NCBI GenBank assembly: GCA_964202905.1
Contig: CAXNJO010000002.1
Coordinates: forward strand, 672,001 to 736,000
Reading direction: 5' to 3'
Source: Polyangiales bacterium
GTDB lineage: Bacteria > Myxococcota_A > Polyangia > Polyangiales > JADJQN01
DNA length: 64,000 nucleotides
The position numbers were made by a program, and so were the translations under genes. Numbering within the stretch: the first letter of the stretch is position 1; each line of letters starts with the position of its first letter. The notes under the pieces are model-generated. The model was not told the origin of the DNA. It saw only the letters and a program-made list of their open reading frames with translations, and did no database searches. Shown here piece after piece: positions 9,530 to 32,661 of the stretch.

Positions 9530-10280
9530 GCGTATAGCCCATCCGATCGCCCCTTCGGTCGTGCTCCGTGACGCTGCATCTTCTCCGAACGCTACGCGAG
9601 CGCGCCGCGGAGCACAATCTCGACGTCAATGCTGCTCTGCCGGAGGCGCGTCGACGTGCCTCGAGCGCCCACTTTCAGCGCATGTTCGCGCAGCGAACGC
9701 ACGTCTCCCTGACCGCGCTGTGCGCAGCCGCTCGACTCACGGTGCTCTCCGCTCAACCGAACACGAGCCGCAGCTGCCCGTGCGCGGACGCTCGCGGCTC
9801 GGCGTCGGGCGGCGCTCTCGGCGGCGCTCTTGCATAGCCGCGCTCGCTGAGCACGCGCGCTATCTCGCCGGGCTTCTTCGCGATCTCGACGATGCGCAGC
9901 CGGCCGCCGCACTTCTCGCACTTCAAGATATCGACCGCGAACACCCGCTGCAGTAGCCAGCTCCACGGATGTCGCGACGGCTCGGCCGTCTTCTTCTTCG
10001 TGGCGCTCTTCGCTGACATCGTCGGCTCGTCCGTCTCATCGAACAGCGAGAGCTGCTTTGGCGGCGCGGCCGGCTTCTTCGGCACGACCTCGGCACGCAG
10101 CGACGAGTGCCCGGCGAGCACGCCGAGGTAGCGCATCAAATGAAAGCGCGGAGGCGGTACCAGCGCGCAAAGCCGCGCGATGAAGTCCGCGGGCGAGAGC
10201 ACGACGGCGTGCGTCCCGTCCCTCCACGCCTTCTTGAAGCGATAGACGACCTGTCCGTCATCGCGCAGCGACAGCCGAGC
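9530..10280 (-). mobile_element. Second IS91/ISCR-family element, 3' half with putative oriIS at ~9530-9550
   Basis: Transposase C-terminus followed by minus-strand GCGATCGGATGGGCTATACGC. It shares the 12-mer GAACGCTACGCG (9587-9598) with the other element end (7659-7670). Confidence 0.6.
9753..10280 (-). pseudogene. IS91-family (Y2) transposase C-terminal fragment
   Basis: VVYRFKKAWRDGTHAVVLSPADFIARLCALVPPPRFHLMRYLGVLA and WSWLLQRVFAVDILKCEKCGGRLR; truncated at the repeat boundary. Confidence 0.88.
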
Positions 10281-11425
10281 GCGTAGGACATTCGAACCCC
10301 TGATCTGCGCCCGCTCCATGCACGGAGGAACGCTACGCGGCTCAGTTGCCCCCCACCGGAGCCCGCGCCCGTTTGCCCGCCGGCGCCGATCTGCCCGCCT
10401 GAGCGACCGACCGCACCCGTCTTTCGCGAATGCGACCACCTTCAGCATTGCGTCGAGACGATCCGCCACGGACACCCCGTCGGCGAAGGCTGACCCATGC
10501 CGCTCGACGACAACTACGCCCGCTGCGGTATCGCCACCGCACGCGTCGAAACGCCTGTCGAATGCGCCAACCTCGGAAGCTGCATCTTGTCCGTCCGCGG
10601 CGGCCTCAAGCCCGGACTCGGTTGCCCACACGAAGGCTCCGCCCTCTACGAAGAGTGCGGCCGCTGGCAGCCGCCTCGACCTCGCGCCGCACGACGCGGG
10701 AGACGAGCGGCGTCGCGCCAGACGACTCCGCCTACGGACGCGCGCTAGAGCCTCAACCGTTCAAGCCCGTAGTCTTCGCGCCGCGGGCTTTCGGCATTCG
10801 TGCCGCGCCGGCACCTCGGGGAGCACGTCGTCGAACAGGTGCGCGGCCAGTGCGCGCGCAACACGCGATGCAGCACAGTGTCCTCCGGACGCCGCCGCGC
10901 ATAGCCGTCCGCACGAGGTGCGTGAGCAAGAGCAGAACAAGCAGCGGCAACGGCAGACACCGCCGCTCATCGGCGCATCATCTGGCGCAGTGCTCAGCGT
11001 GCTCGGCGGCGTCAGTCGCTCGCGGCGCGCGAGGGCGAGCTCGGACGGGTGCGCGCGGACGAAGAGCGCCTCACGCGCGAGCTCGCGGAAGCGCGCAGCG
11101 ACGCGGCGAGTGCGGCCGCGCAGATCGCCGCCGCCGACGCGCGCCGCGCCGACGCCGAGCGCGACGTGAGCGAGCTGCGCCGCGAGCTCGAGCGGCTGCG
11201 CAACGCCGAGCCTGCGCCCGCGCCCGCGGGGCCCTGAGCCGCGCGGCGCGCTCGCTCGCGCGTCAATAGCCCCGATACGCGGGCCCGGCTTCCTTGCGGA
11301 GCGACATCACCGACACGAGCGCGGAACGATCCTTCGCGAGGTAGTGACGCGGGATCATCTGTTGGTGCAGCACCTTCCCGAGTCGCGTGAGGGAGAAGGT
11401 GCCGAGCACGGGATTCGACGTGCCG
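10279..11425. repeat. 1147-bp direct repeat, copy 2 (probable donor: deleted IS91 element + coiled-coil fragment + 3' end of HemN-like gene)
   Basis: Matches 7610-8756. Confidence 0.95.
10745..10960 (-). pseudogene. IS91-family transposase N-terminal remnant (copy 2)
   Basis: Identical translation to 8076-8291. Confidence 0.7.
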
Positions 11426-12683
11426 AGCCCGAGCGATTCCCAACGTGCGAGCAGCGTTCGGTGCGCGGTCATCGTCTCGGCGCCGTACTTCTTCGCGCGT
11501 GAGCGCACGCGCGTCATCGGCGAATACAGCAGATCGAACGTGACGTCGCGCGTCGCGCGCTGGTGCGCGTCGAGCCGCGCGAAGCGAGAGATGGGCAGAT
11601 TCCCCGCCTCGACCGCGTCGCAATAGGCGTGGATATCACGGTGATTGAGGTAGGTCGCGCGGTCTCCGATCGAGAAGCTCGAGTGTCCGAAGCCGTGATA
11701 GAGCACCTCGCCGTACGCGGGATTCACGCGCGAGGTCGCGAGCTCCCACAGCTCGCGGCGCACGTGGCGCGGCGACCGATAGAAGCGCGCCCCGAGCTCG
11801 CTCCAGCCGAGCTCGTCGGCGAAGACCTCGCGGGCGAGGGCGTCGCTGTGCGCCGTCTCGAGAAAGGGCGGCACACGCCGCGCGTCGCGGAAGGTGCGTG
11901 AGCGCGGGTCGTCGTGAAAGGGATACAGAAACACGCTGTCAACCGCTCCCGTGCGCGCGAGCTCGCGCGCCGCGGCGAGCGAGGCGGCGAAGGACGCGGG
12001 CGTCTGCCCTTCGAGCCCGGTCATCAGATCGATGTTGATGAAGTCGAATCCCGCGCTGCGGGCACGCGCGATGGCCTCGAAGACCTCGCGCAGCGGCTCG
12101 CCGTGGTGGTGAAAGGCGTAGAGCTCCGGGTCGAGCGTCTGCACGCCGAGGCTGATGCGGCGGAAGCCCGCGGCGACGAGCGCGTCGAGCTTGTCGCGCT
12201 CGGCGGTGATGGGCTTGGCCTCCGCGGTGCTCATCGTGCGGGGCGGGCCAAGCGCAGGAGCAGCGCGCCGAGGAAGCGCTCGAGCAGCCGCCGCGGGAGC
12301 GCGGTCGGCGTGCCGCCACCGAGGAAATACAACGCCGGGCGAAGATGCGGCGCGATCGCACGGACGCGCGCCATCTCGGTGTCGAGCGCATCGACGTAGC
12401 GCGCCATCAGCGCCTCGTTGTCCTTCGTCGTCAATTCGTAGTGGAAGCAGTAGCGGCAGCGATAGCGGCAGAAGCCGAAGTGGAAGTAGAAACCTGCGTT
12501 GCGAAAGTCGCCGACCGCCTCGGCGAGAAAGGCGCCATCCGTCGGCGCACCGCTCGCCGTGCGCTCGAGCGTCACGGCGGGCGGGTATGTGAGCTGATAA
12601 TCGTGCATGTCCGGTGCAGGCACGAGCGCGGGATCGGCCGCGAAGACCGCGCGCAGATCCGATTCGAGCTTCATCCGATTCAT
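11263..12683 (-). CDS. HemN-like (class C-type) radical SAM enzyme (frameshift near 12245)
   Basis: YFHFGFCRYRCRYC, YFLGGGTPT, RISLGVQT and INIDLMTGL are HemN-family motifs, split between two ORFs. Start ATG at 12683 overlaps the upstream stop. Confidence 0.85.
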
Positions 12684-13459
12684 AGGAACCGCCTCGCTCT
12701 CGACATCGCGTCGAGCTCCGTCTGCATGGCCTCGCGCACGCGCGCGTCGACGTCTTCCACGCGGCCGTCGTGAGGATCGATCGGCGGCAGCACGCGCGTC
12801 ACGATCTTCGTCGGCAGCGGGAGATAGCCGGGGAGCGGGCCCACCCAGAAGCCCCACGGCACGCTCCACGTGAGCGGCAGCACCTTGATCCGGCGGGCGC
12901 TCGCCACCCCCAGCCGGCGCGCGAGGGCGCGCCCCTCTGCGAAGATGACGAGCGCCTCGTGTCCGCCGACGCTGACGACGGGTACGATCGGCACACCCGC
13001 CTCGCGCGCGAGTTCGACGTAGCCCGTGCGCCCCGCGAACTCGATGCGGCCGCGGCGCCAGAAGCTGCGGCACGCGTCGTGATCGCCGCCCGGATAGACG
13101 GTGACGGCACAGCCCGCGCGCAGCGCCGCGAGGCCGCGCGCGTGGCTTGCGCGCAGCGCCCCCATCTTCGCGACGAAGCGCGCGACGCGCGCGGGATACA
13201 CCGAAAACATCGCGTCGTGCGCGAGCGTGCACAGGGGCGTCGTGCGGCCCGCGGTGTGGTACGCGGCGACCCACACGAGCGTGTCGGGGATCATCGCGGC
13301 CCCCGAGTGGTTGCCGACGAAGAGCACGGGGCGATCGGGCACCGCCGCGAGACCGTGCACCTCCGCGCGAAACCAACATCGCAACCAGCGCGCGGTGCGC
13401 GGCGCGTGCCGCGCGACGTACGCGGGATCGTAGGCGCCGACCTCCCCGAACTCCGTCAT
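12680..13459 (-). CDS. Lysophospholipid/DAGAT-like acyltransferase
   Basis: VGNHSG....D, VYPGG, GYVELA..AGVPIVPV; start MTEF at 13459 has an ATGA overlap. Confidence 0.88.
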   Translation of the reverse strand: MTEFGEVGAYDPAYVARHAPRTARWLRCWFRAEVHGLAAVPDRPVLFVGNHSGAAMIPDTLVWVAAYHTAGRTTPLCTLAHDAMFSVYPARVARFVAKMGALRASHARGLAALRAGCAVTVYPGGDHDACRSFWRRGRIEFAGRTGYVELAREAGVPIVPVVSVGGHEALVIFAEGRALARRLGVASARRIKVLPLTWSVPWGFWVGPLPGYLPLPTKIVTRVLPPIDPHDGRVEDVDARVREAMQTELDAMSRARRFL

Positions 13460-13815
13460 CGGTAGAAGTCCAGCGGCGGCCAGTCGGGCAGCGTCGCGCA
13501 CCAGGCGGCGAAGCCGACGAGGGTGACGAAGCGCGGGTCGAGATCGAGCGGATCGGGATAGCGGAACTGCTCGGCGTCACCCGCGAGCTCGACGAGCCGC
13601 GCGTGGTAGCCGGGCCAGCTCGTGAGCGAGACGAGATAAGGCGCCCAGCGCGTCTCGCCGTCGACGACCCGGCGCGCCTCGTCGCGCAGCAGCGCCAGCC
13701 CGCCGGGGTGCGATTGCAGGAGTTGCAGGTCGTAACCGAGGAAGGCGTCCTCGTGATAGACGCTGAGCAGGTGCCGCACGATCTACGCGGGCCGCTCCTC
13801 GCGACCGCCGCTCAT
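13456..13815 (-). CDS. Small hypothetical protein (in-frame TAG at 13783-13785, or GTG start at 13779)
   Basis: Lies between two operon genes with ATGA overlaps at both ends; host-like codon usage. Confidence 0.6.
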
Positions 13816-14834
13816 CGCATCCCTCCCGCGTCATGGGCCAGGCCGCGCCGGACGACGCCCACGAGATCCGGCCCGAGCAGCGACGAGAACGGCACGCCGC
13901 ACGCCTCGACGAAGACCTGCACGACGCGCGGCGCGAAGCGCGTGAAGCTCGCGAACGCACGCGGCTCCCACGTACCCGGCAGCGTGGATTTGAGCGCATC
14001 CAGGCGGCGCAAGTAATCCACGTGCGAGAGGCGCCGTTCCATCCAGTCGAACCGCATCGCGAGCGCACGCGACGCGCCCTCCGGGTGCGCGAGCCGATGC
14101 AGCGGCGCGAAGCCCACCGCGAGCGACGTGCCCTCCGCAGCGAGCGTCGCGGAGAGCGTATGCACGACGCTCCACCACACGCCCCACTGTTTCGTCCTGC
14201 GAAAGCGCAGCACGTCCATTAGCCCCCCGCATACGACACCCTCTTTCCAGATGGCGTTGATGACCGCGAAGCCAAGGATCGATTCGCCCTGCGCGAGGAG
14301 GAACATGCGCCGCGTTCCGTCGTCGACACTCGACCAGGGTCGATTGAGAAACACGATCTCGCGACCGACATCCGTCCGATCGATGGACTCGCGCGAGATG
14401 GCATCGAGTTGCTCACGCAGGCCTGCATCGAGTCCCGCGAGCGACACTTCGCGCAGCGCGAAGTCGTGCCGCGTCGCGTGGCGGAGGGCGCCGCGCACCG
14501 CCTTCGGCGGCTCGCGGAGCAACGCATCCGCGTCGAGCACGCGATCCTGCCCCATCGCTGCGGTGTGCAACCCTTCCCGCGCGCACGCCTCGGCGAACGG
14601 CGCACGCAGATAGAAGAGCATTGGTTTCCGCGCGACGCGCAGGAAGCGCCGCAACATCTCCGCGCGATCTCCGGGCGCGCACCAGGGCCCGCCGAGCGTC
14701 GCGTGCACGTCGCCGACGCGCCGATACGCCCAGCAGCCGAACGACGTCTCGAAGTGCGCGAGCCCCGGCGCGAGCGTCGCGCAGGCGATCAGATCGCCGT
14801 CGCCGAAGCGCTCGACGAACGCGCGTGCGCCCAT
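13812..14834 (-). CDS. MprF/LPG-synthase C-terminal-like (DUF2156) aminoacyl-transferase domain protein
   Basis: TLGGPWCAP, MGQDRVLD, DVLRFR and GFAPL follow the DUF2156/MprF-C motif pattern; soluble, with no flippase domain. Confidence 0.65.
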   Translation of the reverse strand: MGARAFVERFGDGDLIACATLAPGLAHFETSFGCWAYRRVGDVHATLGGPWCAPGDRAEMLRRFLRVARKPMLFYLRAPFAEACAREGLHTAAMGQDRVLDADALLREPPKAVRGALRHATRHDFALREVSLAGLDAGLREQLDAISRESIDRTDVGREIVFLNRPWSSVDDGTRRMFLLAQGESILGFAVINAIWKEGVVCGGLMDVLRFRRTKQWGVWWSVVHTLSATLAAEGTSLAVGFAPLHRLAHPEGASRALAMRFDWMERRLSHVDYLRRLDALKSTLPGTWEPRAFASFTRFAPRVVQVFVEACGVPFSSLLGPDLVGVVRRGLAHDAGGMR

Positions 14835-15769
14835 CAATCCGGCTCCGCGAGCACCTTCCGCACGATGTCGTCCTTCGAGACGAAGACGGGATGGAGCTCG
14901 CCGAGGTCGTAGTGATCGCCGAGCTCGAAGAGGCCGCCGCACACATCGTTGAGCGTGCACGCACCGCAGACATCCGCCTTCGGGTGCGTGAAGTCGGTCT
15001 GCCGGATCGTCCCCTTGTCGTCGAGGAAGTGCACGATGCGCTCCTCGCCCTTCACGATCTTGCGCGTCTCCGTGGAGCAGTGCGCGAACTCGGTCATGTA
15101 ACAGAGCGGCACGCGCTCGACGCGGAAAGAGCGGCCCGTGCGGTGCAGGTGGCGCATCGCGCGCGCGAGCGAGAGCTCGAAGTCGGCGAGGCGGTGCGCG
15201 GTGTCGCGGTTCGTCTCGGCGCGGCCCATCGACGGGTCGAGATTGTTCCACACGAAGTGGCGCAGGAAGGGGAAGCGCGCCGTCCAGCGCTTCACGTTCT
15301 CGTCGAGGTGATCGGCGTTGAACTTGTTGATGACGGTGTTGATGTTCACCGTCGCGCCGACGCGGCCGAGGTTCTCGAGCGCGTCCATCGCGAGCGCGTG
15401 GCTGCCTTTGACGCCCGTGAGGAAGTCCTCGAGGTCGGGGCGGCACGAGTGGATGCTCACGTGGAAGTGGCGCAGCCCCGCGTCGAGGTACGACTCGGCG
15501 ACGCCCGGCTTCGCGAGTCGCGAGCCGTTCGTGATCATGCGGACGTGCAGCCCCTTGGCGCAGGCGTAGCGCGTGATCTCGGGGATCAGCTCCGAGAGCG
15601 AGGGCTCACCGCCGGTGAGGATGATCCCGAAATAGCCGCGCGCGACGAAGTCGTCGACCTGTCGCTGCGCCGTCTCGAGGTCGAGCATGTAGCCCGACGA
15701 GGGATTCGAGCAGAAGCGGCAGTACTGGTTGCAGTGCCGCACGATCTGCATGTAACCGAGGTTCGCCAT
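14834..15769 (-). CDS. Radical SAM protein, HxsC-like
   Basis: CNQYCRFC, TGGEP, ITNG, VPLC and C-terminal CGACTLNDVCGG. Confidence 0.9.
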   Translation of the reverse strand: MANLGYMQIVRHCNQYCRFCSNPSSGYMLDLETAQRQVDDFVARGYFGIILTGGEPSLSELIPEITRYACAKGLHVRMITNGSRLAKPGVAESYLDAGLRHFHVSIHSCRPDLEDFLTGVKGSHALAMDALENLGRVGATVNINTVINKFNADHLDENVKRWTARFPFLRHFVWNNLDPSMGRAETNRDTAHRLADFELSLARAMRHLHRTGRSFRVERVPLCYMTEFAHCSTETRKIVKGEERIVHFLDDKGTIRQTDFTHPKADVCGACTLNDVCGGLFELGDHYDLGELHPVFVSKDDIVRKVLAEPD

Positions 15770-15787
15770 GCTGCTCCGCGGACGGTA

Positions 15788-16930
15788 TCACCCGCGCTCG
15801 TCGTCGTCGCCGCGAACGTCGTCGCTCTGCGCGGGCGCGTCGCCCTCGAAGAGCGCCGGAAAGAGCGAGCGCAACGCCTCGCCGCTGAGCCGCTCACCGC
15901 GACCGACCTCGGCGACGGCCGGCACGCTGCGCCCGAGCATCGGCAACGCACGCCGCACCTTCGCGGGGGAAGGCTCGCTCGCCTCCGCACGGCGCGGCGC
16001 CCGCTCACCCGGCCCGACGAAGGCCGACGCGAGCGGATGCGCGCGCGTCTCCGCGGCCGGCGCGACGGCGGTGTCGCGCGGCGCGAGCTCGTCGCCGTCG
16101 AAGCGCGCGAGGTAGGCCACGTCGACGCCGGGGCACAGAGGCCGTAGCGCGCACGCGTCGCAAGCAGGCGCGAAGGCGCGCACGCCGTCGCCGAGCGCGT
16201 CGCCGGGGATCGCGTGGGCGCCATAGGGCCCGAGCAGGCACAGCGGCGCGCCTGCGACGAAGGCCGTCAGCCCGCGCGCGCGCGCCGCAGCGAGGGCGCG
16301 CACGGCGAAGGGCAGCGCGAGGCCGAGGCGCGGGTACACGCGATCGAAGCGCTCCTCCGCGCGCCCGGCGACGACGGGCACGGCGATGCACCAGGCCGCG
16401 ACGCCGCGGGCCACGACGAGCGCCGCGAGCGCGTCGAGCGCGCGGTAGTTCGAACGGGTGAGCACGGTCGCGACGACGACCTCGAGTCCGGCGGCGCGCG
16501 CCGCGGCGAGCGCGCGCAGCACGTCGTCGAAGCTGCCTGCGCGCCCCGTGTGGTAGTCGTGCACGGCCGCCTCGGCGCCCAGCAACGTCAGGTGCACGTC
16601 GGTGAGCCCTTGCTGCGCCAGCCGCTGCCAGCGCGATGCATCCATGAGATTCGACGCATTGCTCTGCACGCCGATCCGCGTGAAACCGAGCGTGCGCGCG
16701 GCGTCGACGCGCCCCTCGAGCGACGCGTCGAGCCCCGGCTCACCGCCGACGAAGCTCACCTCGTCGTGGGTCGCGCGGAGCGACGCGAGGGCCGCGCGCG
16801 CACCGTCCGCGTCGAGCGACTCGCGCGGCGCGAGTCCGTCCTGATCGCAGAACACGCACGCGTTCGTGCACGCCTGCGTGAGCGTGACGAGCCCGCGAGA
16901 CCGCGGCGCCGGAGGTGAGGAACTCGACAC
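15788..16930 (-). CDS. Radical SAM protein, HxsC-like
   Basis: CTNACVFC, VGGEP, APLC and CDACALRPLCPG; the GTG start is approximate. Confidence 0.85.
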   Translation of the reverse strand: MSSSSPPAPRSRGLVTLTQACTNACVFCDQDGLAPRESLDADGARAALASLRATHDEVSFVGGEPGLDASLEGRVDAARTLGFTRIGVQSNASNLMDASRWQRLAQQGLTDVHLTLLGAEAAVHDYHTGRAGSFDDVLRALAAARAAGLEVVVATVLTRSNYRALDALAALVVARGVAAWCIAVPVVAGRAEERFDRVYPRLGLALPFAVRALAAARARGLTAFVAGAPLCLLGPYGAHAIPGDALGDGVRAFAPACDACALRPLCPGVDVAYLARFDGDELAPRDTAVAPAAETRAHPLASAFVGPGERAPRRAEASEPSPAKVRRALPMLGRSVPAVAEVGRGERLSGEALRSLFPALFEGDAPAQSDDVRGDDDERG

Positions 16931-16997
16931 GCACCGCGACTCTACGGGGGCGCGACGCGCACGGTCAACGCGACGCGCTGCTACGCTGCGCCTCCGC

Positions 16998-17924
16998 GTG
17001 GCGCTGCTCGACGTCATCCTCGGCTACGACTGCAACCTCGCTTGCGACTACTGCACGATCACGCCCGCGATGCGCGCGCGGGCGCTGACGACGGAGCAGG
17101 TCGTGCGCGAGCTCCGCGCGGGGCGGGACGCGGGCTTCGACGCCGTCTCGCTGACGGGCGGAGAGCCGACCATCCGCCGCGATCTGCTCGGCCTCGTGCG
17201 GGCCGCGCGGCAGCTCGGCTATGCGTCGATCAAGGTGCAATCGAACGGCCTGCTCTTCGCGCACGCGCCCAACGTGCAGCGCCTCGTCGAGGCGGGCGCG
17301 ACGCTGCTGCACGTCTCCATCCACACGCACGAGGCCACGCGCTACGACGCGCTCGTGCGCCGCGAGGGCAGCCATCCGCAGATGGTCGCGGGGCTGCGAA
17401 ACGCCGTCGCGACGGGCGCCGAGGTCGTCGCCGACCTCATCCTGAAGGCCGACACCCACGCCGCGCTGCCCGACGCGCTGCGGTGGGTGCACGCGCAGGG
17501 CGTGCGCGCCGCGCACCTCTGGTTCGTCTCCCTCACGGACGGAAACCGCGACAACGTCGCGTCGCTGCCCCGCATGGGCGAGACGCTGCCGGCGGTGCAC
17601 GAGGCGCTCGCGTACGCGCGCGAGTCCGGCATGGACGTGCGCTCGCTGCACATCCCGCGTTGCCTCCTCGGCGCCGATCACGGACACGCGTGGGACCCGG
17701 GCAGCGTGCGCGTGCGCGTCGTGACGCCGGAGGCGACCTTCGACCTCGCCGACAGCAAGCTCGCGGGCAGCGTGCACGTCGCGGCGTGCGAGGGCTGCAC
17801 GTTCCGCGCGGTGTGCCCCGGGATCCGCCGCGACTACCTCGAACACGTGGGCGACGCCGAGTTCGCCGCTGCGCGCGGACAGCCGGCGACCCATGCCGGA
17901 CGCGTGCGTCTGCCCGTGGCGTGA
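16998..17924 (+). CDS. Radical SAM protein, HxsC-like
   Basis: CNLACDYC, TGGEPT, QSNG, IPRC and CEGCTFRAVCPG; GTG start at 16998. Confidence 0.88.
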   Translation: MALLDVILGYDCNLACDYCTITPAMRARALTTEQVVRELRAGRDAGFDAVSLTGGEPTIRRDLLGLVRAARQLGYASIKVQSNGLLFAHAPNVQRLVEAGATLLHVSIHTHEATRYDALVRREGSHPQMVAGLRNAVATGAEVVADLILKADTHAALPDALRWVHAQGVRAAHLWFVSLTDGNRDNVASLPRMGETLPAVHEALAYARESGMDVRSLHIPRCLLGADHGHAWDPGSVRVRVVTPEATFDLADSKLAGSVHVAACEGCTFRAVCPGIRRDYLEHVGDAEFAAARGQPATHAGRVRLPVA

Positions 17925-17942
17925 CGCGCGGCGCTGCGCTGC

Positions 17943-17987
17943 GATCGGCGACCGCGAGCGGTGACCGAGATCGGCGACCGCGAGCGG
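17943..17987. repeat. Short intergenic direct repeat GATCGGCGACCGCGAGCGG x2
   Basis: Copies at 17943-17961 and 17969-17987, between convergent genes. Confidence 0.7.
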
Positions 17988-18001
17988 CGATGAATGGCGG
18001 T

Positions 18002-20369: not shown

Positions 20370-20404
20370 CACCGACAGTCTATCGGATTGCCCGCGCCGC
20401 GAAT

Positions 20405-22282: not shown

Positions 22283-22391
22283 TCACGGCGCCGCGCCCGG
22301 CCCGCGTGCGGTCGCTGCGGATCGGCCGCGCACCGCGTCGCTGGCCGCGGCCGCGCGCCGCGCGATCCGCGACGCAGTTCGGCCACCGCGG

Positions 22392-23480
22392 TCAATACAC
22401 GCCGTTGGAGAGCTCGACGATGTAGCCCGCACACGCGAGCGGCGCGGACGGCTTGCGACGCACGCGCACGAAGTAGTCGGCGCTCTGATCGCCGCAGACG
22501 TTCGCCCCCGGGACCGGCGACGGCGCGCACGGGCACTCGCCCGTCGAGCCCGGGCCAGTGCCGGAGAGGAAATCCGTGAAGAACGAGAAGTCCTGATAGC
22601 CCGTGTCCGCGCAGCCCATCGGGAGCACGCCGCACCCGCCGCGGAACACGGTGAACTCGAACGCTGAATCGGGATTCATCAGGAACTGCACGCGCACGTG
22701 GAGCGCGTCGCAGCTCGTGTCTGCGGTGTCCACCCCGCGGAAGCGGTACCAGACCTCGCGCGCCGCCGGGAGGGCGTTGCCCGTGACCAGCTGCATCTGC
22801 CCCGTGTCGGCGAGCTCGCCGAGGTCCTGCGCACCGGCGCAATCCGCCGCGACTCCGTCGGCCGGGACCGCGGCGCACTCGCAGCCCGTGTCGGCGCGCG
22901 CGTCGAGATCGAACTGCCCCGGCGGACAACCGCACGCGCCCGAGAGGCAGATCCCCTCACCGGGCGCGCAGAGCACGGAGGGCGCGGCGTCGTCGGTGCC
23001 GCCGCTGCAGTCGTCGTCGAGCGCGTTGCAGACCTCCGGTCGCCCGGGCGCGATCGCGGGGTTCGTCTCGTCGCAGTCCGTCGCCGCGGTCACGCCGTCG
23101 CCGTCGATGTCGCGGTCCCGCGGCACGCAGTAGCGCGCGCGGCAGAGGTCGGCGGGGTCCGGGCAGCCGCCCGCCGGCGTGCAGGCGTCGTACGGCACGC
23201 ACGTCCCGCGCTCGCAGACCTCGAACCCCATGCAGACGACCCCGCGGCACGGATCCGCGGGTCCCATGTCCACCGGCGAGGCCGCGTCGTCTGCGGCGTC
23301 CCGCGACGCGTCGCGCGGCCCCCCTTCGGCCAACGCCATGTCGCGTGGCGCACCGCCCGCATCGCCGCCGTCCCCGGCGCCGCTCGCGCACGCCGCCAGG
23401 CCGGTGAGGGCCGCGACGAGCAGACCGAGGGCCCCTCGACGTGGGGACGAAGCCGCGGGGTGCAGTGCGCGTGTCCTCAT
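22392..23480 (-). CDS. Cys-rich lipoprotein with MopE-like putative metal-binding repeat
   Basis: Lipobox LAAC; DIDGDG...[24 protein letters not shown] motif. Confidence 0.85.
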
Positions 23481-23562
23481 GCTGCCGACGATACCCCGCT
23501 GCGCGGAGCGCCGGCAAACATGTCACGTGGGAGTCGGAAGCCGTGCCCCGCTCCCGGACGGA

Positions 23563-23853
23563 TCACCAGCTGCCGTGCGAACCGTGCGAGCCGTGCGAGC
23601 CGTGCGAGCCGTGCGAGCCGTGCGAGCCGTGCGAGCCGTGCGAGCCGTGCGAGCCGTGCGAGCAGTGCTGCCCGCTTCGCTGCGCGTCGCCGGGATCACC
23701 CTTGCCCCCCTCGTCCGCCGCAGCGAGCGCGCGCGCCGAGACCTCGTGCTGGGTGTCGGAGAGGGTTCCCGTCACGTCGGCGCGGAAAGAAGGGAGGGAC
23801 TCGCCGTCCTCCGCCGAATCGTCGTCGTTGCCGTTGCGTCCGGGTCCTGCCAT
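23563..23853 (-). CDS. hxsA: His-Xaa-Ser repeat precursor peptide (HxsA-like)
   Basis: 96 aa with an acidic leader then HCS(HGS)10W; GGAG RBS 8 nt upstream of the ATG; directly downstream of hxsB on the same strand. Confidence 0.88.
23569..23667. repeat. 9-bp tandem repeat (CGAGCCGTG)n encoding 11 His-Xaa-Ser triplets
   Basis: Seen directly; variant units at the array ends keep H-x-S on the minus strand. Confidence 0.95.
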
Positions 23854-23928
23854 GTCGATGCTCCGCGAAGGTGGGGGGGCAATTGTAGGTCGAGCGAGGC
23901 CGCGCTGTCACGCGGTCGCGAAAATAAC

Positions 23929-25443
23929 TCAGGGCGCGGTGGCGGCGCCCTGCAGGAAGTGGTCGCGGCTGCGAACGGTCGTCCACCGCTGCAGCACCGC
24001 CATCGTCGCCGGGTCGCCCTCCGCGAGCTTGCCGAAGAGGTAGTCCTGGATGCCCTTGTGCACCGCGCACAAGGAGCTGAGGCGCATCGATCCCCAGATG
24101 TGGCCGAGCGCTTTGTGGCTGTGCACGGGCGCGACGCCGCAGTACGGGTTGTACGTGCAATCCACGCAGTCCGGCTGGCTGTCGCGCTGCGACGCGATCA
24201 CGAGGGCGCGCACCGTCGCGTGGCCCGTGATGTCGCGGTAACGGCTCGTGCGGACGTCGCCGAGGAGGAAGGTGTCGTCCCCGGTCTCGTGCAGCATGCG
24301 GCCCTCGTCGCACGTGAAGATGCGGCCGTCGTAGCTGTAGGCGAGCTGACCGATGCCCGCGCCGCCCGGGCTGCGGATGTCGAGGAAGTTCGGGTCCTCG
24401 CCCGCGAGGATCTTGGTGAGGAAGATCGCGGCGTAACGCTCGAGAATCTGCACGCCCTGCTGGTTCAGCTGGAGCATGTAGTCGGTCGCCTGCCGGTAGA
24501 AGTCGAGGTACTCGCTGCGCGGGTACTCGACGCGCGCGCCGGTCTTCTCGACGAAGCCGAACGGGTCGATCGGGCGCAGGAAGAGGGCCTTGCAGCCGAG
24601 GGCGACGTAGGTGTCGACGACCTCCTTCCAGCGGGGGAGCGTTTCGCGCGTCGTCGTGAGCAGCGCCTCGACGTGGTAGAGCGTCGGGTCGAGGCCCATC
24701 TCGGCGTAGGCCTCGTTGATCCGGGCGATCCAGCGCGTCGCGGCCTTGTGCGACGAGAGCCCCGGCAGCTTTCGCTGCTTGTCGTGCAGGTGCTCGGGGC
24801 CGTCGATGCTCGTGCAGATCTGCACCTTGTGCGCGAGCAGGAAGGCGAGCTTCTCCTCGTCCATCAGGGAGAGGTTCGAGACCATCGTGAACTCGAGCTG
24901 CTTGCCGACGTCTTCGTTCTTCTGCTTCGCGTAGGTGATCGCGTGCTTGACGACCTCGAAGTTCACGAGGGGCTCGCCGCCTTGGAACTCGATCGTGATC
25001 GACGGGCTGGTCGAGCGGAGGATGAAGTCGATCGCGCGCTCGGCCGTCTCGCGCGACATGTCCGTGTGCACGGCCTCCATGTCGGCACGCGACGCGTGGC
25101 AGTACACGCACGTCTCGTTGCAGCGGAGCGTGACGACGAGGATGTGGAGGTTCGGGCCGAGGTGGAGGAAGGACTTCCGCGCGCGCACGCGGGCGATGGC
25201 CTTCTGCACGTCGTACTCGGCGCGGACGAAGTTCGCGTCGCGGAGGCGCGCGTGAAGCGGCTCGTCCGCCTTCACCTCGCCGCGCGCGAAGCGGCCGAAC
25301 TCGTCGTCCGAGAGGAGCAGCCAGTTCCCCTCGAGGTTCGTGATCAGGATCTTCTCGCCGATGCGCCGATGCCGGAAAAACGCCGGATAGCGCGTGTCGA
25401 GGCGGGCGCCGGGGCCGACGAGCGCGCGGAGATCGACCGTCAC
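23929..25443 (-). CDS. hxsB: His-Xaa-Ser system radical SAM maturase HxsB
   Basis: [53 protein letters not shown] and [14 protein letters not shown] start overlaps the upstream TGA. Confidence 0.88.
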
Positions 25444-25661
25444 GACCGCCCCCCACGCTCGCGGATCGTCGTGCCGAGCGCGTAGTTGGCGAGCTCGCGC
25501 GCGATCTGCGTCGCGCGGGCCTCCGACTTCGCCGTCACGCGCACCACCCAGTGGGTCGGCTCCTCGCGCAGCTCGAACTCCGCGAAGCGCGCGTAGGTCT
25601 TCACGGCCGCGTCGACGGCCGTCCCCGCGTAGAGCTCGCGGTGCAGGCGCAGCTCGGTCAC
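25440..25661 (-). CDS. Short HxsD-like protein
   Basis: 73 aa; LY...AV..A...Y and ELANYAL resemble the adjacent HxsD; coupled by GTGA overlaps. Confidence 0.7.
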   Translation of the reverse strand: MTELRLHRELYAGTAVDAAVKTYARFAEFELREEPTHWVVRVTAKSEARATQIARELANYALGTTIRERGGRS

Positions 25662-26167
25662 GGCTCGCCCCCGGGCTCATCGCCGGACGGTGCGGCGGCG
25701 CCCTCGGCGGGCGCGACCTTCTTTTTGTACTTCTCTTCCCAGCTCATCGCGATGCCGAGCGGATCCTCGAAGGACTCGTCGCCGAAGTCGAACCCGGCGA
25801 GGTCGTCGAGCGAGGGCGCGCCCATGGCCGCGGAGATCGCCTGCGACGTGACCATCTCGATGACGGCGCGGTTGTCCTGCGCGATCTGCTGGCGCCACGC
25901 CGCCGAGAGGAGCTCGTTCGAGAACTCGCCCACGAACGCGCGCAGCACGGCTTCGTCCGCGCCCGCTTTGCGGGGCGCGAGCGTCACGCGGACCGTGTGC
26001 GCATCGGGCTTGTCGAGCAGCACGAAGCAGCGGTCGAGGAAGACGTACGCGGACGCGTAGACCGCTGACAGCGGGTAGAGCGTGAGGTCGACGCGGAGGT
26101 GCACCGCGCCGGACACGAGGTCGGCGGTGACGAGCTCCGAAGGGAGGGCTTCGAGGGGAGAGGACAT
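25658..26167 (-). CDS. hxsD: His-Xaa-Ser system protein HxsD
   Basis: LYPLSAVYASAYVFLDRCFV and GEFSNELL...RQQI...NRAVIE fit the HxsD pattern; located upstream of hxsB. Confidence 0.75.
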   Translation of the reverse strand: MSSPLEALPSELVTADLVSGAVHLRVDLTLYPLSAVYASAYVFLDRCFVLLDKPDAHTVRVTLAPRKAGADEAVLRAFVGEFSNELLSAAWRQQIAQDNRAVIEMVTSQAISAAMGAPSLDDLAGFDFGDESFEDPLGIAMSWEEKYKKKVAPAEGAAAPSGDEPGGEP

Positions 26168-26215
26168 GGGGATGGAACTCCAGGGCCGTGCGGATCGGCC
26201 CGACGACGGGCAGGG

Positions 26216-28534
26216 TCAGCGCGTGAGGGTGAGCTGGTATTGCGCGGCGCTCGTCCCGCTGGTGGTGCGGAAAACACGAACGTAGATGGGGCTAGGCCAG
26301 GTGACGTTGCGGCTCGACCACTGACGGACCCCGGGGATCGACTGGTCGTCGACGAACGCCCACTCTTGCAGGCTCGTGGCGGTGCCGCCGCTGCCGCAGC
26401 CGAGGGGCGCGGCGGGGCAGCCGCTGGTCACCTCGAAGCGGAACGCGGAGCCGTCGTTGCGCGTGAACCGGATGCGCGGCGTGCCGCCGCCGTTGGCGCC
26501 GAGGGGCGGGAAGGATGCGAAGAAGTAGTCGCTGGCGCCCACGCTCGCGATGCTGCCCGCGAGGGTGTTGACCGCGCCGCCGACGCTGATGGAGCCGAGG
26601 GAGGTCGCGGTGCCGCACGACGCGCCGTTGCCCTCGTCGACGACCTCGCAGCCGTTCGCGTAGGTGCCGTCGACGTCGACCGCGTTCGCGCTGCACGCGC
26701 CGATCGAGCACCCCGCGCCGCCGCCACAGACCGTGGACGACACATTCGCCGTGGCCGGACAGAGCGACGCGATGGGCGCGTTGTCCGTGACGCCGTCGCA
26801 GTTGTCGTCGACGCCGTTGCACGCCTCGAAGGCGCTCATGCCCGCCATGCACATCACCGGCACGCCCGCGCTGCACATCGCGACGCTGACGCTGCAGAGG
26901 CCGAGGCCGCAGGTCTGCGTGCCCGCGGGCGCATCGGTGCACGCGCCCGCCGTCATGCCGTTGCAGGTCCCGACCGTCGGGCTCTGACAGACGTCGTTGC
27001 AATCGATTTGCACTTCGGTCCCGGCCGGACGCGAGGGGCACAAGTCCGCGGGCGCGAGGCAGGCGCCGATCCCGTTGCAGGCCGCGAGGTCGCCATCGAC
27101 GGCCGCGCGACGCCGACAGGCGCCGAGGCCATCGAAGCCGCCGTAGTAGTCGGAGCACGAGAAGCCGGGGCACTCTCCGTCCGGATCGCGGCCGAGCGCG
27201 ACGGGCGTGCACGTCCCGCGCGTGTCCGGGAGGTCGCAGCGCTCGCACTGCCCCGAGCAGGCCGACGTGCAGCAGACGCCGTCCACGCAGGAATTGCCGT
27301 CCTGACAGTCCTGCACACGCGCGCATCCGCCGCCCGGCGGCCGGTCGAGCGCGCAGACGCCGAGCTCGCAGTGCGCGGACGCGACGCACTCGGCGTCGGC
27401 CACGCACGCGGTCGGGCACGTCGGCGCGGACTGGGCGACCTCGCCCGTGCAGTAGACGGGCAGGTAGAGCCCGCAATCGCGCGCGAGGACCGAGGGGACG
27501 CACGCCGAGTCGTCGGGGACACCCGCGATCACGACGCAGGAGTTCGACTCGCAGGCCGTGTCACCGCGCGTGCCCTGGCAGGTCGACGCGGAGTCGCACG
27601 CCGCGCCCGTGCCGCCGCCGCAGTCCATCGGCGTGCGGCAGCACTGGCCCGAGTCGCAGCAGTAGCCGTTGTCGCAGTGGCCGGACGCGCAGTCGGAGTC
27701 CTCGTCGCACGTGCCGCCGTTCGACTCGTCGTTGAGGCAGGTCATGCCGTCGCAGTGCGCGGCCGCGATGCAGCGCTCGTCGCCCGTGTTCGGGCCCGTC
27801 GAGGGGCAGTCGAGCGCGCAGCGGCTGCCGAGCCCGCCGCCGAGCTCGCAGCTGAACAGCCCGCACGACGTGAGCGTGCCGCTCGTGCACGCGGCGTCCA
27901 CGCACATCGCGCTGCGGATGTCCTCGTAGGTGCCGGGCATCGCGACGTTGGGCCGACACACGCCCGAGACGCAGTCCGTCATGGTCCCATCGGTCGTCCC
28001 GTCGCAGTCGTCGTCCGTGCCGTTGCAGCGCTCGGGCTCGCCGGGGTTCACGTCGGCGCTCGCGTCGTCGCAGTCGCGACCCATGCAACCGACGCCCTGA
28101 CCGTAGGCGTCACGGTCCTCGTCGACGCAACAGGTCGCGCCGAGCGGCGCGCAGACGTACTCGTCGACCTCGAGGGCCGAGCTCAGCGTGCAGCCGAAGT
28201 TGCCGGGGCAGGAGGGCAGATCGGGGATGCAGCCCGGCAGGCATGCACGACCGCCCGTCGCGAGCGCGGCGCAGAACGAACCGGGGTTGCAGTCACCGTT
28301 CGTCTCGCACGCCTCGCAGGTGCCGGCGCGCGTGGTCGGCCCCATGTCCACCCCGGCATCGGCGCCGAGATCCGCGCCGCCGTCCATCTCGCCGAGGTCG
28401 GCCATGCCACCGTCCGCCCCGCCGTCGCCGGGCCGCACCGGCGGCGCCGCATTGCTGGCGCACGCGCCGAGCGAGAGCAGCGCGGCCGAGAGCAGACCCC
28501 GCACGAGCGGTTTATTGAGGACGGGCATCCGCAT
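26216..28534 (-). CDS. Large Cys-rich lipoprotein with MopE-like repeats
   Basis: GGAGGAG RBS, lipobox LGAC, many Cys modules, DCDDASADVNPGEPERCNGTDDDCDG and EACNGVDDNCDG. Confidence 0.88.
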   Translation of the reverse strand: MRMPVLNKPLVRGLLSAALLSLGACASNAAPPVRPGDGGADGGMADLGEMDGGADLGADAGVDMGPTTRAGTCEACETNGDCNPGSFCAALATGGRACLPGCIPDLPSCPGNFGCTLSSALEVDEYVCAPLGATCCVDEDRDAYGQGVGCMGRDCDDASADVNPGEPERCNGTDDDCDGTTDGTMTDCVSGVCRPNVAMPGTYEDIRSAMCVDAACTSGTLTSCGLFSCELGGGLGSRCALDCPSTGPNTGDERCIAAAHCDGMTCLNDESNGGTCDEDSDCASGHCDNGYCCDSGQCCRTPMDCGGGTGAACDSASTCQGTRGDTACESNSCVVIAGVPDDSACVPSVLARDCGLYLPVYCTGEVAQSAPTCPTACVADAECVASAHCELGVCALDRPPGGGCARVQDCQDGNSCVDGVCCTSACSGQCERCDLPDTRGTCTPVALGRDPDGECPGFSCSDYYGGFDGLGACRRRAAVDGDLAACNGIGACLAPADLCPSRPAGTEVQIDCNDVCQSPTVGTCNGMTAGACTDAPAGTQTCGLGLCSVSVAMCSAGVPVMCMAGMSAFEACNGVDDNCDGVTDNAPIASLCPATANVSSTVCGGGAGCSIGACSANAVDVDGTYANGCEVVDEGNGASCGTATSLGSISVGGAVNTLAGSIASVGASDYFFASFPPLGANGGGTPRIRFTRNDGSAFRFEVTSGCPAAPLGCGSGGTATSLQEWAFVDDQSIPGVRQWSSRNVTWPSPIYVRVFRTTSGTSAAQYQLTLTR

Positions 28535-28587
28535 CGGCTCCTCCGCTTTCGAGACTTCGTCGATTAACGTAACAGTCCGCGCGCGCG

Positions 28588-30435
28588 CTAGACAAGGATC
28601 ACGTGCGCGCGCTTCCAGCGGATCAACCACTGATTCGAGGTCGCAGGACCGACCTCGCGCCGCTCGAGGACGTCGAGCGGGATCGCCAGCGCATCGGCCG
28701 CACGCGCGACGTGCGCCGCGGCCGCCCCGGCGTCGTCGTTGCGGTGATGCTCGAAGCCCGCGCGCGACCGCTCGGCGCGGCGGGCGTGGGCGGGCGTACG
28801 CGCGAGACCGAACGCGACGTTGTCGACGACGGTGATCGTGCCACCCGGCCGCAGCGCGGGGAGCAACTGCGAGAGCGCCGCGTCCGGATCGGCGAGGTGG
28901 TTCCAGCTGCGGAGCACGAGGACGTGATCGAACGACGCAGGCTCGAGCGCCGCCGTCTCCGCGGTGCCCTCGCGCACCTCGCCCCAGGGTCGACGGACGC
29001 GGAGCCGGGCGCACGCGGCGGCGTCCGGCTCGAGGCCGACCCACGCGATCCGGCCCTCTCGCGCGAGCGGCGCGAGCACGTCGTCGTAGGGCCCCTCGCC
29101 GCAGCCGACGTCGAGCACGCGCCCGCCGAGGGTCGAGAGCAGCGCGCGCACGAGGGCGTCGTCACGGCCGAACACATCCTCGAGGCGCGGCTCGAAGAGC
29201 CCCGTGCACGCATCCCGCGCGCTGCAACCCGTGCAGAGCGCGCTGCGCGAGAGCTGCACGAGATCCCGCGCGAAATCGTCGGGCGCGGCCTTGCGGGAGA
29301 CGTCCACGTACACCTGTCCGAGCCTGTGCTTGAGGTGCTCGAGCTCGACGTCCGCGAAGTCGCGCGTCTCGGTGCGGTAGCGCGCGACGCGCCCCTGGTG
29401 GCGCACGAAGAGGTGGCGACCGCGATCCCACGGCGTGACGCCCTGCGCGCCGTCGCGCAGCGGACAATGCGCGGGATCGGCCTCCGTCGGCACGAGCGCC
29501 TCGAGCACGTAGTGGAACGAGTTCGAGCGCGCGCGCGGCGCGGGCGGTCGCAGCTCGTCGGCGCCGAAGGCCTCGAGATAGCCGCGAAAGAGGCCCGGAC
29601 ACGGCCCCCGCAGCGGGCAGTCGCTGCAGACCTCTTCGGGCTGGATCTTCGCGACGTCGTCGACGGGGAAGAAGTCCGGCTCGCCGACCTCGACCATCGT
29701 CGCGAAGCGATCGGTGCGGAGATCGTCGTAGTCACCCTCGAGCCCCGGCAACAGGCAGAGCGGGAGCCCGTCGTGCGTGAAATGCGGCCCGGCGGCCCCG
29801 CGCGCGCGCACGCCATCACGACCATGGAAGATGGCATCTCTGACCCGCGAAGCGACGTGCGCGACGCGCGGCACGACGTGCTCGAAGAGCTTCTCGCCGC
29901 CGCCCTTCGGTTGCGTCATCGAGAACTTCAGCGTCAGCCGCTCGAGGGGGAGCAGCAGATCGACGAGCGGGCGGAGGTGATCGACGTTCTGGCGCGTGAC
30001 GACGCAGTTGATCGTCAGCTCGATCCCGGGCCGCGCGTGCACGTTGCGGATCGCGCGGAGCGCCTCGTCGAAGCCGTCCGCGCGCACGAGCGCGTTGTGC
30101 ACGCGCGCGCTCCCCGCGTGCAGCGACATGTACACGTAGCGCAGCCGCGCGGCGATCAGTTGCTCGAGCACGTCGTCGTAGGCGAGCAGCCGCCCGTTCG
30201 TGACGAGGCCGAGGTCCATGTCGAGCGACGCGACGTGCGTGGCCCAGCGCATCAGCTCGGGGCGGATCGTCACCTCGCCGCCCGAGAGCACGACCATCGA
30301 GTGCCCGAGCTCCTTCGCGCGGCGGATCTTGCGGTGGGTCTCGGACTCGTCGCCCTCGATGTGGCGCACGTCGAGCGTGTGGCAGAACGTGCAGTGCTCG
30401 TTGCAGCCGTAGCCGACCTTGATGAGCGCTTTCAT
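28588..30435 (-). CDS. Radical SAM (HxsC-like) fused to class I SAM-dependent methyltransferase
   Basis: CNEHCTFC, SGGE, VTNG, LPLC, CSDCPLRGPCPG and CTGCSARDACTG, then VLDVGCGEG...SFDHV...LRPGG. Confidence 0.9.
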   Translation of the reverse strand: MKALIKVGYGCNEHCTFCHTLDVRHIEGDESETHRKIRRAKELGHSMVVLSGGEVTIRPELMRWATHVASLDMDLGLVTNGRLLAYDDVLEQLIAARLRYVYMSLHAGSARVHNALVRADGFDEALRAIRNVHARPGIELTINCVVTRQNVDHLRPLVDLLLPLERLTLKFSMTQPKGGGEKLFEHVVPRVAHVASRVRDAIFHGRDGVRARGAAGPHFTHDGLPLCLLPGLEGDYDDLRTDRFATMVEVGEPDFFPVDDVAKIQPEEVCSDCPLRGPCPGLFRGYLEAFGADELRPPAPRARSNSFHYVLEALVPTEADPAHCPLRDGAQGVTPWDRGRHLFVRHQGRVARYRTETRDFADVELEHLKHRLGQVYVDVSRKAAPDDFARDLVQLSRSALCTGCSARDACTGLFEPRLEDVFGRDDALVRALLSTLGGRVLDVGCGEGPYDDVLAPLAREGRIAWVGLEPDAAACARLRVRRPWGEVREGTAETAALEPASFDHVLVLRSWNHLADPDAALSQLLPALRPGGTITVVDNVAFGLARTPAHARRAERSRAGFEHHRNDDAGAAAAHVARAADALAIPLDVLERREVGPATSNQWLIRWKRAHVILV

Positions 30436-30500
30436 GTGGGCCGCGACGCGAGCATAACAGGCGGGTGCGCGCGCGCGCCGCTTCGCGGTAGGGTCGCGGC

Positions 30501-31873: not shown

Positions 31874-31902
31874 CGCGCGCCGTGGTGCTGCCCCTCGCCT
31901 CG

Positions 31903-32649: not shown

Positions 32650-32661
32650 ATCGCGATTCAG

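Follow-up and report, generated by a model that had tools for sequence, protein, structure and literature searches.

A candidate type 4 His-Xaa-Ser radical-SAM gene cluster in a bacterium of the order Polyangiales

Core genes of the cluster

The 64,000-nucleotide stretch of contig CAXNJO010000002.1 of a lake-water Polyangiales bacterium, referred to here as the window, carries a cluster of radical S-adenosylmethionine (rSAM) genes built around members of the His-Xaa-Ser (HXS) families. Between positions 11263 and 30735 lie eight genes with nine rSAM domains, grouped around a core of hxsD, an hxsD-like gene, hxsB and hxsA4. This gene content bears out an initial annotation made from the DNA letters alone. 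Judged by its sequence matches, the cluster is an expanded variant of HXS, of a 'type 4' that is catalogued in NCBIfam but unstudied. With slightly better than even confidence, it is read as the principal site of a type 4 His-Xaa-Ser system in a myxobacterium (class Polyangia, Sandaracinaceae-like), one that works as a single extended pathway.

Most long open reading frames (ORFs) in the window are spurious because its G+C content is ~72%. Genes were chosen by third-position GC and frame tracing and then searched against Pfam and NCBIfam. From 30735 down to 22392 the minus strand encodes, in order, an rSAM enzyme fused to a methyltransferase, a 772-aa Cys-rich protein, hxsD, the hxsD-like gene, hxsB, hxsA4, and a second Cys-rich protein. 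Beyond 22392 follow rSAM5 on the plus strand, a B12-like rSAM fusion on the minus strand, and rSAM3 on the plus strand. A minus-strand run then extends from 17017 down to 11263, comprising rSAM2, rSAM1, an LPG_synthase_C-like gene, a gene for a 108-aa protein, an acyltransferase gene, and a HemN-like rSAM gene. The core consists of the following genes.

25658–26167, minus strand: HxsD, 169 aa; TIGR03976, 55.1 bits, just above the cut-off of 50; acidic C-terminal tail conserved
25440–25676, minus strand: HxsD-like small protein, 78 aa; its gene overlaps the last bases of hxsD and the first of hxsB
23929–25443, minus strand: HxsB, rSAM/SPASM-type maturase; TIGR03978, 551.9 bits, cut-off 370, model positions 2–466 of 466
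23563–23853, minus strand: HxsA4 precursor peptide, 96 aa; NF038313, 58.8 bits, cut-off 55

The identities first proposed for these genes hold, as HxsB, HxsD, and HxsA4 score over their NCBIfam cut-offs and the HxsD-like protein is recognised with hhalign. HxsA4, encoded 75 nt downstream of hxsB, has an acidic leader, then the core HCS(HGS)10 and a terminal Trp. Database searches with the peptide returned only NF038313 and weak collagen-like models at E values up to 0.001. An alignment of the window peptide with 18 homologous segments taken from related loci shows no variation at Pro21 (in an LPSF motif), at Leu31, or in the HCS(HGS)n core. The conserved positions of the leader are Pro21, Leu31, Ser39, and Ala42, within the consensus LP(S/T)(F/Y) ... 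Q(R)EIS.RA ... AD. In total, 38 HxsA4-like ORFs were recovered from related loci, the full-length ones ending in Trp, and the number of HGS repeats varies between genomes from ~8 to ~40. The orthologues in relatives G037 and G026 score 82.5 and 99.2 bits on NF038313. With its conserved leader, distinct core, and position beside candidate modifying enzymes, HxsA4 resembles the precursor of a ribosomally synthesised and post-translationally modified peptide (RiPP). Some genomes carry two hxsA4 genes in tandem (L017 in G016, L093, L095, L098, and L074).

HxsB orthologues are found in 12 of 40 relatives at 58–71% identity, and a 12-sequence alignment of HxsD contains 36 invariant columns. Among neighbourhoods of ~40 kb around hxsB in ten relatives, eight have hxsD, the hxsD-like gene, and hxsB together, with the hxsD-like gene between the other two. 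BLASTP detects no significant similarity of the HxsD-like protein to HxsD (E 11), whereas hhalign aligns the two over 63 columns with a probability of 82.7% (E 9.5e-6), which makes the HxsD-like protein a distant paralogue of the N-terminal domain of HxsD. Complex prediction of HxsD plus HxsD-like with HxsA4 gave a score of 0.38, compared to 0.02 for the best control, with a partner pLDDT of at least 41; at least 18% of contacts agreed between runs. Of the pairs used for calibration, 116 of 157 solved complexes reached the mark, compared to 2 of 215 mismatched pairs; those that did so with scores up to 0.60 comprise only 18 of the solved complexes but both mismatches. The prediction lends weak support to binding of HxsA4 by HxsD and the HxsD-like protein.

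Accessory radical-SAM genes

Seven genes with eight rSAM domains accompany HxsB in the cluster.

28588–30735, minus strand: HxsC-like rSAM fused to a class I SAM-dependent methyltransferase (rSAM-MT); PF04055 75.6 bits, PF08241 47.9 bits; HxsC4 94.7 bits, cut-off 500; start probably nearer 30450–30500
20405–22282, plus strand: rSAM5, HxsC-like, 625 aa; PF04055 78.2 bits; HxsC4 106.9 bits, cut-off 500
18002–20369, minus strand: B12-like (class B-like) rSAM fused to an HxsC-like rSAM, two domains; one gene, frame broken in the assembly
16866–17924, plus strand: rSAM3, HxsC-like, divergent from rSAM2; PF04055 78 bits; HxsC4 83.8 bits, MoaA 80.1 bits; start probably nearer ~16986
15788–17017, minus strand: rSAM2, HxsC-like; PF04055 62.1 bits; HxsC4 97.3 bits, cut-off 500; start probably nearer ~16906
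14834–15769, minus strand: rSAM1, HxsC-like, 311 aa; PF04055 82.3 bits; best NCBIfam match HxsC at 84.1 bits, cut-off 267.9
11263–~12698, minus strand: HemN-like (class C-like) rSAM gene, split, with the N part at 12231–~12698 and the C part at 11263–12234

The six HxsC-like domains and the methyltransferase domain of the initial annotation are present, but 'HxsC-like' is to be read as a best-match label only. The six domains score 55–107 bits on HxsC/HxsC4, compared to cut-offs of 267.9 (HxsC) and 500 (HxsC4); on NF038332 alone they score 52.9–106.9 bits against the cut-off of 500 and none passes. Their best matches outside the Hxs families are MoaA, AhbD, NirJ, and Tes-type enzymes, at similar scores. 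All six have in common with true HxsC4 a CX3CX2C motif and a C-terminal CxxCx5CxG motif, the orthologue from genome G025 standing in for the frameshifted domain of the B12 fusion in this comparison. In rSAM1 these take the form of CNQYCRFC and the C-terminal CxxCx5CxG. Orthologues of rSAM1 are 57–89% identical across the order. Between families rSAM1 reaches 83–89%, well above HxsB (58–71%), and there is a second group of orthologues at 57–63%.

The B12 fusion is best seen in its intact G025 orthologue (L021:1898–4198), which has 766 aa and two PF04055 stretches with the motifs CPFGCVHC and CNNHCTFC. The B12-type label given initially is tentative: the B12-binding profile, PF02310, matches the orthologue weakly (17 bits, E 0.0052, cut-off 32.1). 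The B12-rSAM families NF038361 (69.6 bits, cut-off 575) and ApyD (67.1 bits, cut-off 750) also match below their cut-offs. The long C-terminal region of rSAM5 has no Pfam match, and an atlas search with it gave only unnamed Myxococcota clusters. The gene at 11263–~12698 is called HemN-like only, because the TIGR00538 cut-off of 324.95 is missed by both its C part (69.6 bits) and its N part (32.3 bits). The HemN-like rSAM was thus correctly noted as present, but it is split by a frameshift and falls under the HemN cut-off; its NCBIfam matches to hemN, STM4012, and ChuW/HutW are all far below threshold.

Two of these genes have broken reading frames. In the HemN-like gene, PF04055 profile positions 2–66 fall in one ORF and 84–162 in the next, with the break at ~12231–12234; the homologue in G013 is a single reading frame. 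In the B12 fusion (18002–20369), tblastn against the intact orthologue revealed at least eight frame switches. The shifted frames are free of stops and still encode conserved sequence, with an intact VCNNHCTFC in an alternative frame at 18740–18960. Public lake-water metagenome contigs were compared over 11200–21000, from runs X1 and X3 of one study and X5 of another. Contigs of these runs lack single window bases at 18793, 18924, 19230, 19267, 19749, 19759, and 19812, these being the seven B12-fusion sites among the indels listed, with 39 further indels besides. The 20 sequencing runs listed for this sequence include none from RNA. Across 12200–12457, X3 record 17 and X5 record 26 display one gap each. 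As intact motifs lie in the shifted frames and the contigs of two studies lack the extra bases, the frameshifts in both genes are probably assembly errors. The single-base indels are concentrated in few genes, and neighbouring genes are intact. Just outside the cluster, a GSDH-like ORF at 30501–31463 matches only profile positions 3–135 of 332, and the frame changes again between this ORF and an acyltransferase at ~31940–32649. The frame breaks across 30501–32649 look like a local assembly error.

Distribution, second locus and probable passenger genes

HxsB, rSAM-MT, rSAM5, the B12 fusion, rSAM1, and HxsC4 were profiled across 121 genomes of the order, the source genome (G000) included. The rSAM-MT query was the C-terminal 315 of 715 aa and so represents the methyltransferase half only, and C-terminal parts were also used for rSAM5 and the B12 fusion. 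The genomes are kin, and the following counts overstate their independence.

HxsB: 43/121 genomes, 41 over cut-off
rSAM-MT, C-terminal half: 37/121 genomes, 37/37 HxsB-positive
rSAM5, C-terminal part: 38/121 genomes, 37/38 HxsB-positive
B12 fusion, C-terminal part: 34/121 genomes, 33/34 HxsB-positive
rSAM1: 37/121 genomes, 35/37 HxsB-positive
HxsC4: 33/121 genomes, 29 over cut-off, 32 HxsB-positive

All four accessory genes (rSAM-MT, rSAM5, the B12 fusion, and rSAM1) occur together in 30 of the 121 genomes and every one of these 30 is HxsB-positive, while the four are all missing from 76 of the 78 HxsB-negative genomes. The grouping of these genes is not due to chance, as the accessory genes track HxsB across the 121 genomes. 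The initial annotation had made a failure of the extra rSAM genes to co-occur with hxs genes the ground for abandoning its proposal, and the opposite was found. The accessory set recurs in at least ten families of the order, and superclusters of 15–40 kb on a single contig are found in G113, G045, G042, G120, G071, and G067.

Gene neighbourhoods display the same association on a finer scale. Within 20 kb of hxsB in the ten relatives, rSAM-MT and rSAM2 are each found five times, rSAM3 three times, rSAM1 and the B12 fusion twice each, and rSAM5 once. The rSAM-MT gene adjoins hxsD in five of the ten. Near hxsB, orthologues of rSAM2 are 37–53% and those of rSAM3 58–64% identical to the window proteins. 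A protein scan with rSAM-MT yielded 75 loci, nearly all in Myxococcota. Carriers include metagenome-assembled genomes (MAGs) of Sandaracinaceae, which are closest at 76% identity, Polyangium, Chondromyces apiculatus DSM 436, Nannocystis, and Archangium MAGs. Of these loci, 34 have full 10-kb flanks, which contain hxsD in 15 cases, the hxsD-like gene in 14, rSAM5 in 11, hxsC4 in 10, hxsB in nine, and rSAM3 in seven.

The window has no true HxsC or HxsC4, its best score on NF038332 being 106.9 bits. Across the whole genome, none of 16 matches to canonical HxsC (TIGR03977) exceeds 267.9 bits, the best reaching 91.6 bits. The only true HxsC4 of the genome lies on another contig at G000:C1:32380–33381, with 618.1 bits on NF038332 (cut-off 500). 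It belongs to a second rSAM locus at ~19400–33400 of contig C1 (L041:7421–19662, L042:284–1387, L036:103–1377), which also encodes a MauG/MbnH-like di-haem enzyme, a 627-aa double-rSAM protein, rSAM proteins of 448 and 368 aa, a cupin/JmjC-like protein, and a UbiA-family membrane protein. Because HxsC4 and these further rSAM genes are on C1, the window does not hold a complete system. The UbiA-family gene is directly ahead of hxsC4 on C1, and no second HxsA-like peptide was found in this upstream position. Genes of the UbiA prenyltransferase-like family adjoin hxsC4 or hxsA4 in three places, C1 itself (L036:103–1377), G032 (L026:2870–3610), and L067:12283–12840, and another is present in the rSAM-MT locus L079:8049–8573. 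A 208-aa protein without a known family (L041:10462–11088) has relatives that adjoin rSAM2-type genes in the congener (61% identity), in Nannocystis (43–44%), and in L057 (L118:2308–2880, L080, L089, L057), and its gene may also belong to the set.

Genes of both loci of the source genome occur together within 21.8 kb in another Sandaracinaceae MAG (L043). In the congener, locus L073 (G001:C18) is syntenic with window positions 18002–34746, from a phosphoketolase gene through to the B12 fusion. This locus contains hxsA4-hxsC4 and lacks hxsB, which the congener carries on another contig (G001:C115). Within one genus the split is hence reciprocal, as the window has hxsB without hxsC4 and the congener locus has the reverse. 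In G037 and G026, hxsA4 is directly followed by a true hxsC4 (606 and 623 bits, respectively). The placement of hxsB and hxsC4 on separate loci is common in the order.

Five further genes within the cluster have a much narrower distribution.

26216–28534, minus strand: large Cys-rich putative lipoprotein, ~772 aa, with MopE-type motifs; PF11617, 38.6 bits; lipobox-like SLGAC, read by eye
22392–23480, minus strand: Cys-rich putative lipoprotein with a MopE-type motif; PF11617, 39.5 bits; lipobox-like LAAC, read by eye
13812–14831, minus strand: LPG_synthase_C (MprF C-terminal, DUF2156)-like putative aminoacyl-transferase; PF09924, 63.3 bits, cut-off 27.5
13456–13782, minus strand: 108-aa protein, middle gene of the transferase module; no Pfam or NCBIfam match
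12680–13501, minus strand: acyltransferase, PlsC/DAGAT-like; PF01553, 39.4 bits, cut-off 23

The acyl- and aminoacyl-transferase genes and the two Cys-rich lipoproteins were correctly recognised in the initial annotation; the roles in lipidation and surface display that it tentatively raised are not supported. The LPG_synthase_C-like gene occurs in 2 of the 121 genomes. Its three-gene module is found in none of the ten hxsB neighbourhoods (within 20 kb) and none of the 75 rSAM-MT loci. The second copy of the module is in the distant G087 (L122, G087:C214) at 45–59% identity, with the acyltransferase 58% and the 108-aa gene 59% identical, and it lies on a different contig from rSAM1; the module is nowhere else among the 121. 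Lipidation by this module was rejected as a conserved part of the system, and the module is taken to be a local passenger. A transposase fragment (PF04986) at 9753–10631 is located ~1.6 kb from the module in the window.

Both Cys-rich lipoproteins are retained in congener locus L073, the one at 22392–23480 in place at 66% identity and the ~772-aa protein at 68% identity. Beside the core they occur in this locus only, one of the 34 full rSAM-MT loci. Their participation in the system, including surface display of the peptide, is not supported and they too are probably local passengers.

Proposed pathway and comparison with known systems

In the proposed pathway, HxsA4, with its acidic leader and HCS(HGS)10W core, would be the ribosomal substrate. 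HxsB, as a SPASM-type enzyme, and HxsC4 would modify it with the help of HxsD and the HxsD-like protein. The HxsC-like retinue of rSAM1, rSAM2, rSAM3, rSAM5, the B12-like fusion, and the rSAM-methyltransferase would then tailor the same peptide through radical chemistry and methylation. In the source genome this set would be divided, with hxsC4 and further rSAM domains encoded on C1. That the accessory enzymes act on HxsA4, and by which chemistry, is inferred from gene sequence and association. The product may be a His-rich peptide that binds metal or nucleic acid, or possibly a defence effector as in E. coli.

Several observations weigh against one extended pathway. The type 4 subtype is known from sequence alone, and the predicted complex of HxsD and HxsD-like with HxsA4 is weak, with an uncertain partner fold. 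By their database scores the accessory enzymes are far under every curated family cut-off, and rSAM3 scores barely higher on HxsC4 (83.8 bits) than on MoaA (80.1 bits). Five HxsB-positive genomes have none of these four accessory genes, rSAM-MT, rSAM5, the B12 fusion, and rSAM1 (G018, G034, G047, G086, and G091). Conversely, the HxsB-negative G033 and G043 carry some of them; these two assemblies are fragmented and 86% and 93% complete, respectively. As the genomes are kin, the co-occurrence is not independent and may reflect the shared descent of two pathways. The accessory genes are also often on other contigs or 20–120 kb from hxsB. Finally, the frameshifts may be real in the source strain, with the metagenome contigs possibly coming from related strains.

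Shared descent leads to the most serious alternative, unlikely but not negligible, in which the Hxs core (D, D-like, B, A4, and C4) matures the peptide alone. The paralogues would serve a separate cofactor, lipid, or other-protein pathway, tied to Hxs in Polyangia only by common ancestry, lineage, and neighbourhood. The distance of many accessory genes from hxsB fits this arrangement, as do their matches to MoaA, AhbD, NirJ, and Tes-type enzymes, which act on small molecules. In the E. coli study (PMC13128918), more than 99.8% of canonical HXS systems comprise four proteins, which is also in line with a self-sufficient core. Additionally, the rSAM2-rSAM1 operon runs on into lipid-type transferases, and a UbiA-family gene sits beside hxsC4. 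Set against these points is the tight phylogenetic profile, in which HxsB is present in all 30 genomes with the four accessory genes, and none of the four occurs in 76 of the 78 genomes without HxsB. Direct adjacency to the core recurs in different families, the C-terminal Cys motif is common to the accessory enzymes and true HxsC4, and neither another conserved precursor nor a gene of a small-molecule pathway was found in the neighbourhoods.

A further alternative concerns function in the organism and is consistent with the enzymology of the extended pathway. Matured, His-rich HxsA4 would be exported in defence against phages, predators, or competitors and block the entry of foreign DNA, with the extra rSAM enzymes diversifying or reinforcing the effector. 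HxsB and HxsD are equivalog-level members of the families of a proven defence system (PMC13128918), and a repeat number of ~8–40 between genomes is what an arms race might give. However, HxsA4 at 96 aa is too short for a peptidoglycan-binding domain and has no evident signal peptide, its leader being acidic rather than basic. PADLOC-DB 2.0.0, which predates the HXS paper, gave only generic viperin-like rSAM matches (27–62 bits), a match to PDC-M51A at 48.8 bits, and one to mad2 at 37.7 bits. The system is lineage-wide in some families (HxsB in 9/9 genomes of f11 and 11/15 of f22) and rSAM1 is 83–89% identical across families, both unlike typical mobile defence islands. Defence is not favoured because of the peptide architecture, the unlinking of hxsB and hxsC4, and the lineage-wide distribution, and it is given rather little credence. 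Least probable by some way is decay, in which the frameshifts and the missing hxsC4 reflect real pseudogenisation and the locus no longer makes a product. The frame switches, at least eight in 18002–20369 and one at ~12231 with neighbours intact, the absence of hxsC4 from its usual place after hxsA4, and the nearby transposase fragment could be taken this way. Yet the shifted frames retain conserved residues and Cys motifs without stops, and the contigs of three runs from two studies lack the extra bases at the seven listed sites. Moreover, hxsC4 is intact elsewhere in the genome (618 bits) and separate hxsB and hxsC4 loci are common in the order.

A more specific extension of the one-pathway reading is put forward tentatively, and is itself doubtful. 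Here, the (HGS)n scaffold would be worked by a dozen-odd rSAM domains, nine in the window and five on C1 including HxsC4, into a densely cross-linked, methylated, His-derived product with a vertically inherited, non-defence role in Polyangia. What results might be a polymer that binds metal, or a small molecule excised in many copies. On this view, the four-gene anti-phage HXS of Proteobacteria would have branched off in reduced form from an older and more elaborate pathway of peptide chemistry.

The initial annotation held that Hxs systems had no firmly established product, a statement that is now outdated. According to Li et al. (Nat Commun 2026, PMC13128918), canonical HXS is an anti-phage system that blocks phage DNA entry in E. 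coli, with processed HxsA as its effector. Maturation of E. coli HxsA needs HxsB, HxsC, and HxsD, with HxsC binding HxsD. It consists of N-terminal processing and a +8 Da change at the SHRSS motif, the chemistry of which is still unsolved (PMC13128918). Canonical HxsA combines a peptidoglycan-binding domain with five HxS repeats, and 99.7% of the systems are in Pseudomonadota, with 99.6% in the order D-B-C-A (PMC13128918). Another paper lists HxsB and HxsC as putative maturases only (PMC9062424).

To our knowledge, the Hxs family had been without an assigned function for over a decade before 2026. HxsB and HxsD of the window pass the same equivalog models as their canonical counterparts (TIGR03978 and TIGR03976, respectively). 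Both systems encode a His-Xaa-Ser repeat substrate beside HxsB/HxsD and have an HxsC-type second rSAM enzyme in the genome. By analogy, rSAM-dependent maturation of a repeat protein is likely to be a principle common to the two. In contrast to canonical HxsA, the substrate encoded in the window has 96 aa, a leader-core build with 10 HGS repeats, and no match to TIGR03979, and no protein of the genome reaches the cut-off of TIGR03977 (best 91.6 bits, cut-off 267.9). The window also differs in having an extra HxsD-like gene and seven further rSAM domains. Its gene order is D, D-like, B, A4 with hxsC4 unlinked, whereas canonical HxsB and HxsC are adjacent.

Radical-SAM peptide pathways outside the Hxs families offer a looser parallel. 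Those for PQQ (PqqA/D/E) and mycofactocin (MftA/B/C) combine a leader-core peptide with a SPASM-type rSAM enzyme and small helper proteins. The PqqE and mycofactocin maturase models match the HxsC-like enzymes below threshold, far under their cut-offs. We know of no counterpart in these systems to the repeat core or to the many rSAM paralogues.

The cluster also corresponds to the type 4 models of NCBIfam, NF038313 for HxsA4 and NF038332 ('rSAM_rare_HxsC4') for HxsC4, which are passed by the window peptide and the C1 gene, respectively. Relatives G037 and G026 have the two genes in tandem. These models cover the peptide and one enzyme only, and the six accessory HxsC-like domains fail them. 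The initial description of the system as possibly new stands in part. A literature search, with most subscription journals outside its coverage, found no mention of HxsA4, HxsC4, or an expanded Hxs system, nor of 'HGSHGS' in the relevant sense, but the HxsA4/HxsC4 subtype already has its NCBIfam models. Compared to canonical HXS, type 4 joins an HxsB/HxsD-type core to a much simpler, highly repetitive substrate and a second HxsD-type helper. It adds a conserved set of six or more extra rSAM paralogues with methyltransferase and B12-like domains. Type 4 may thus serve as a natural experiment on how HxsB- and HxsC-type enzymes act on His-Xaa-Ser units, and is a candidate source of new radical peptide chemistry. 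As rSAM-MT orthologues are present in the cultured strains Chondromyces apiculatus DSM 436, Polyangium fumosum DSM 14668, and Nannocystis exedens DSM 71, these questions are testable.

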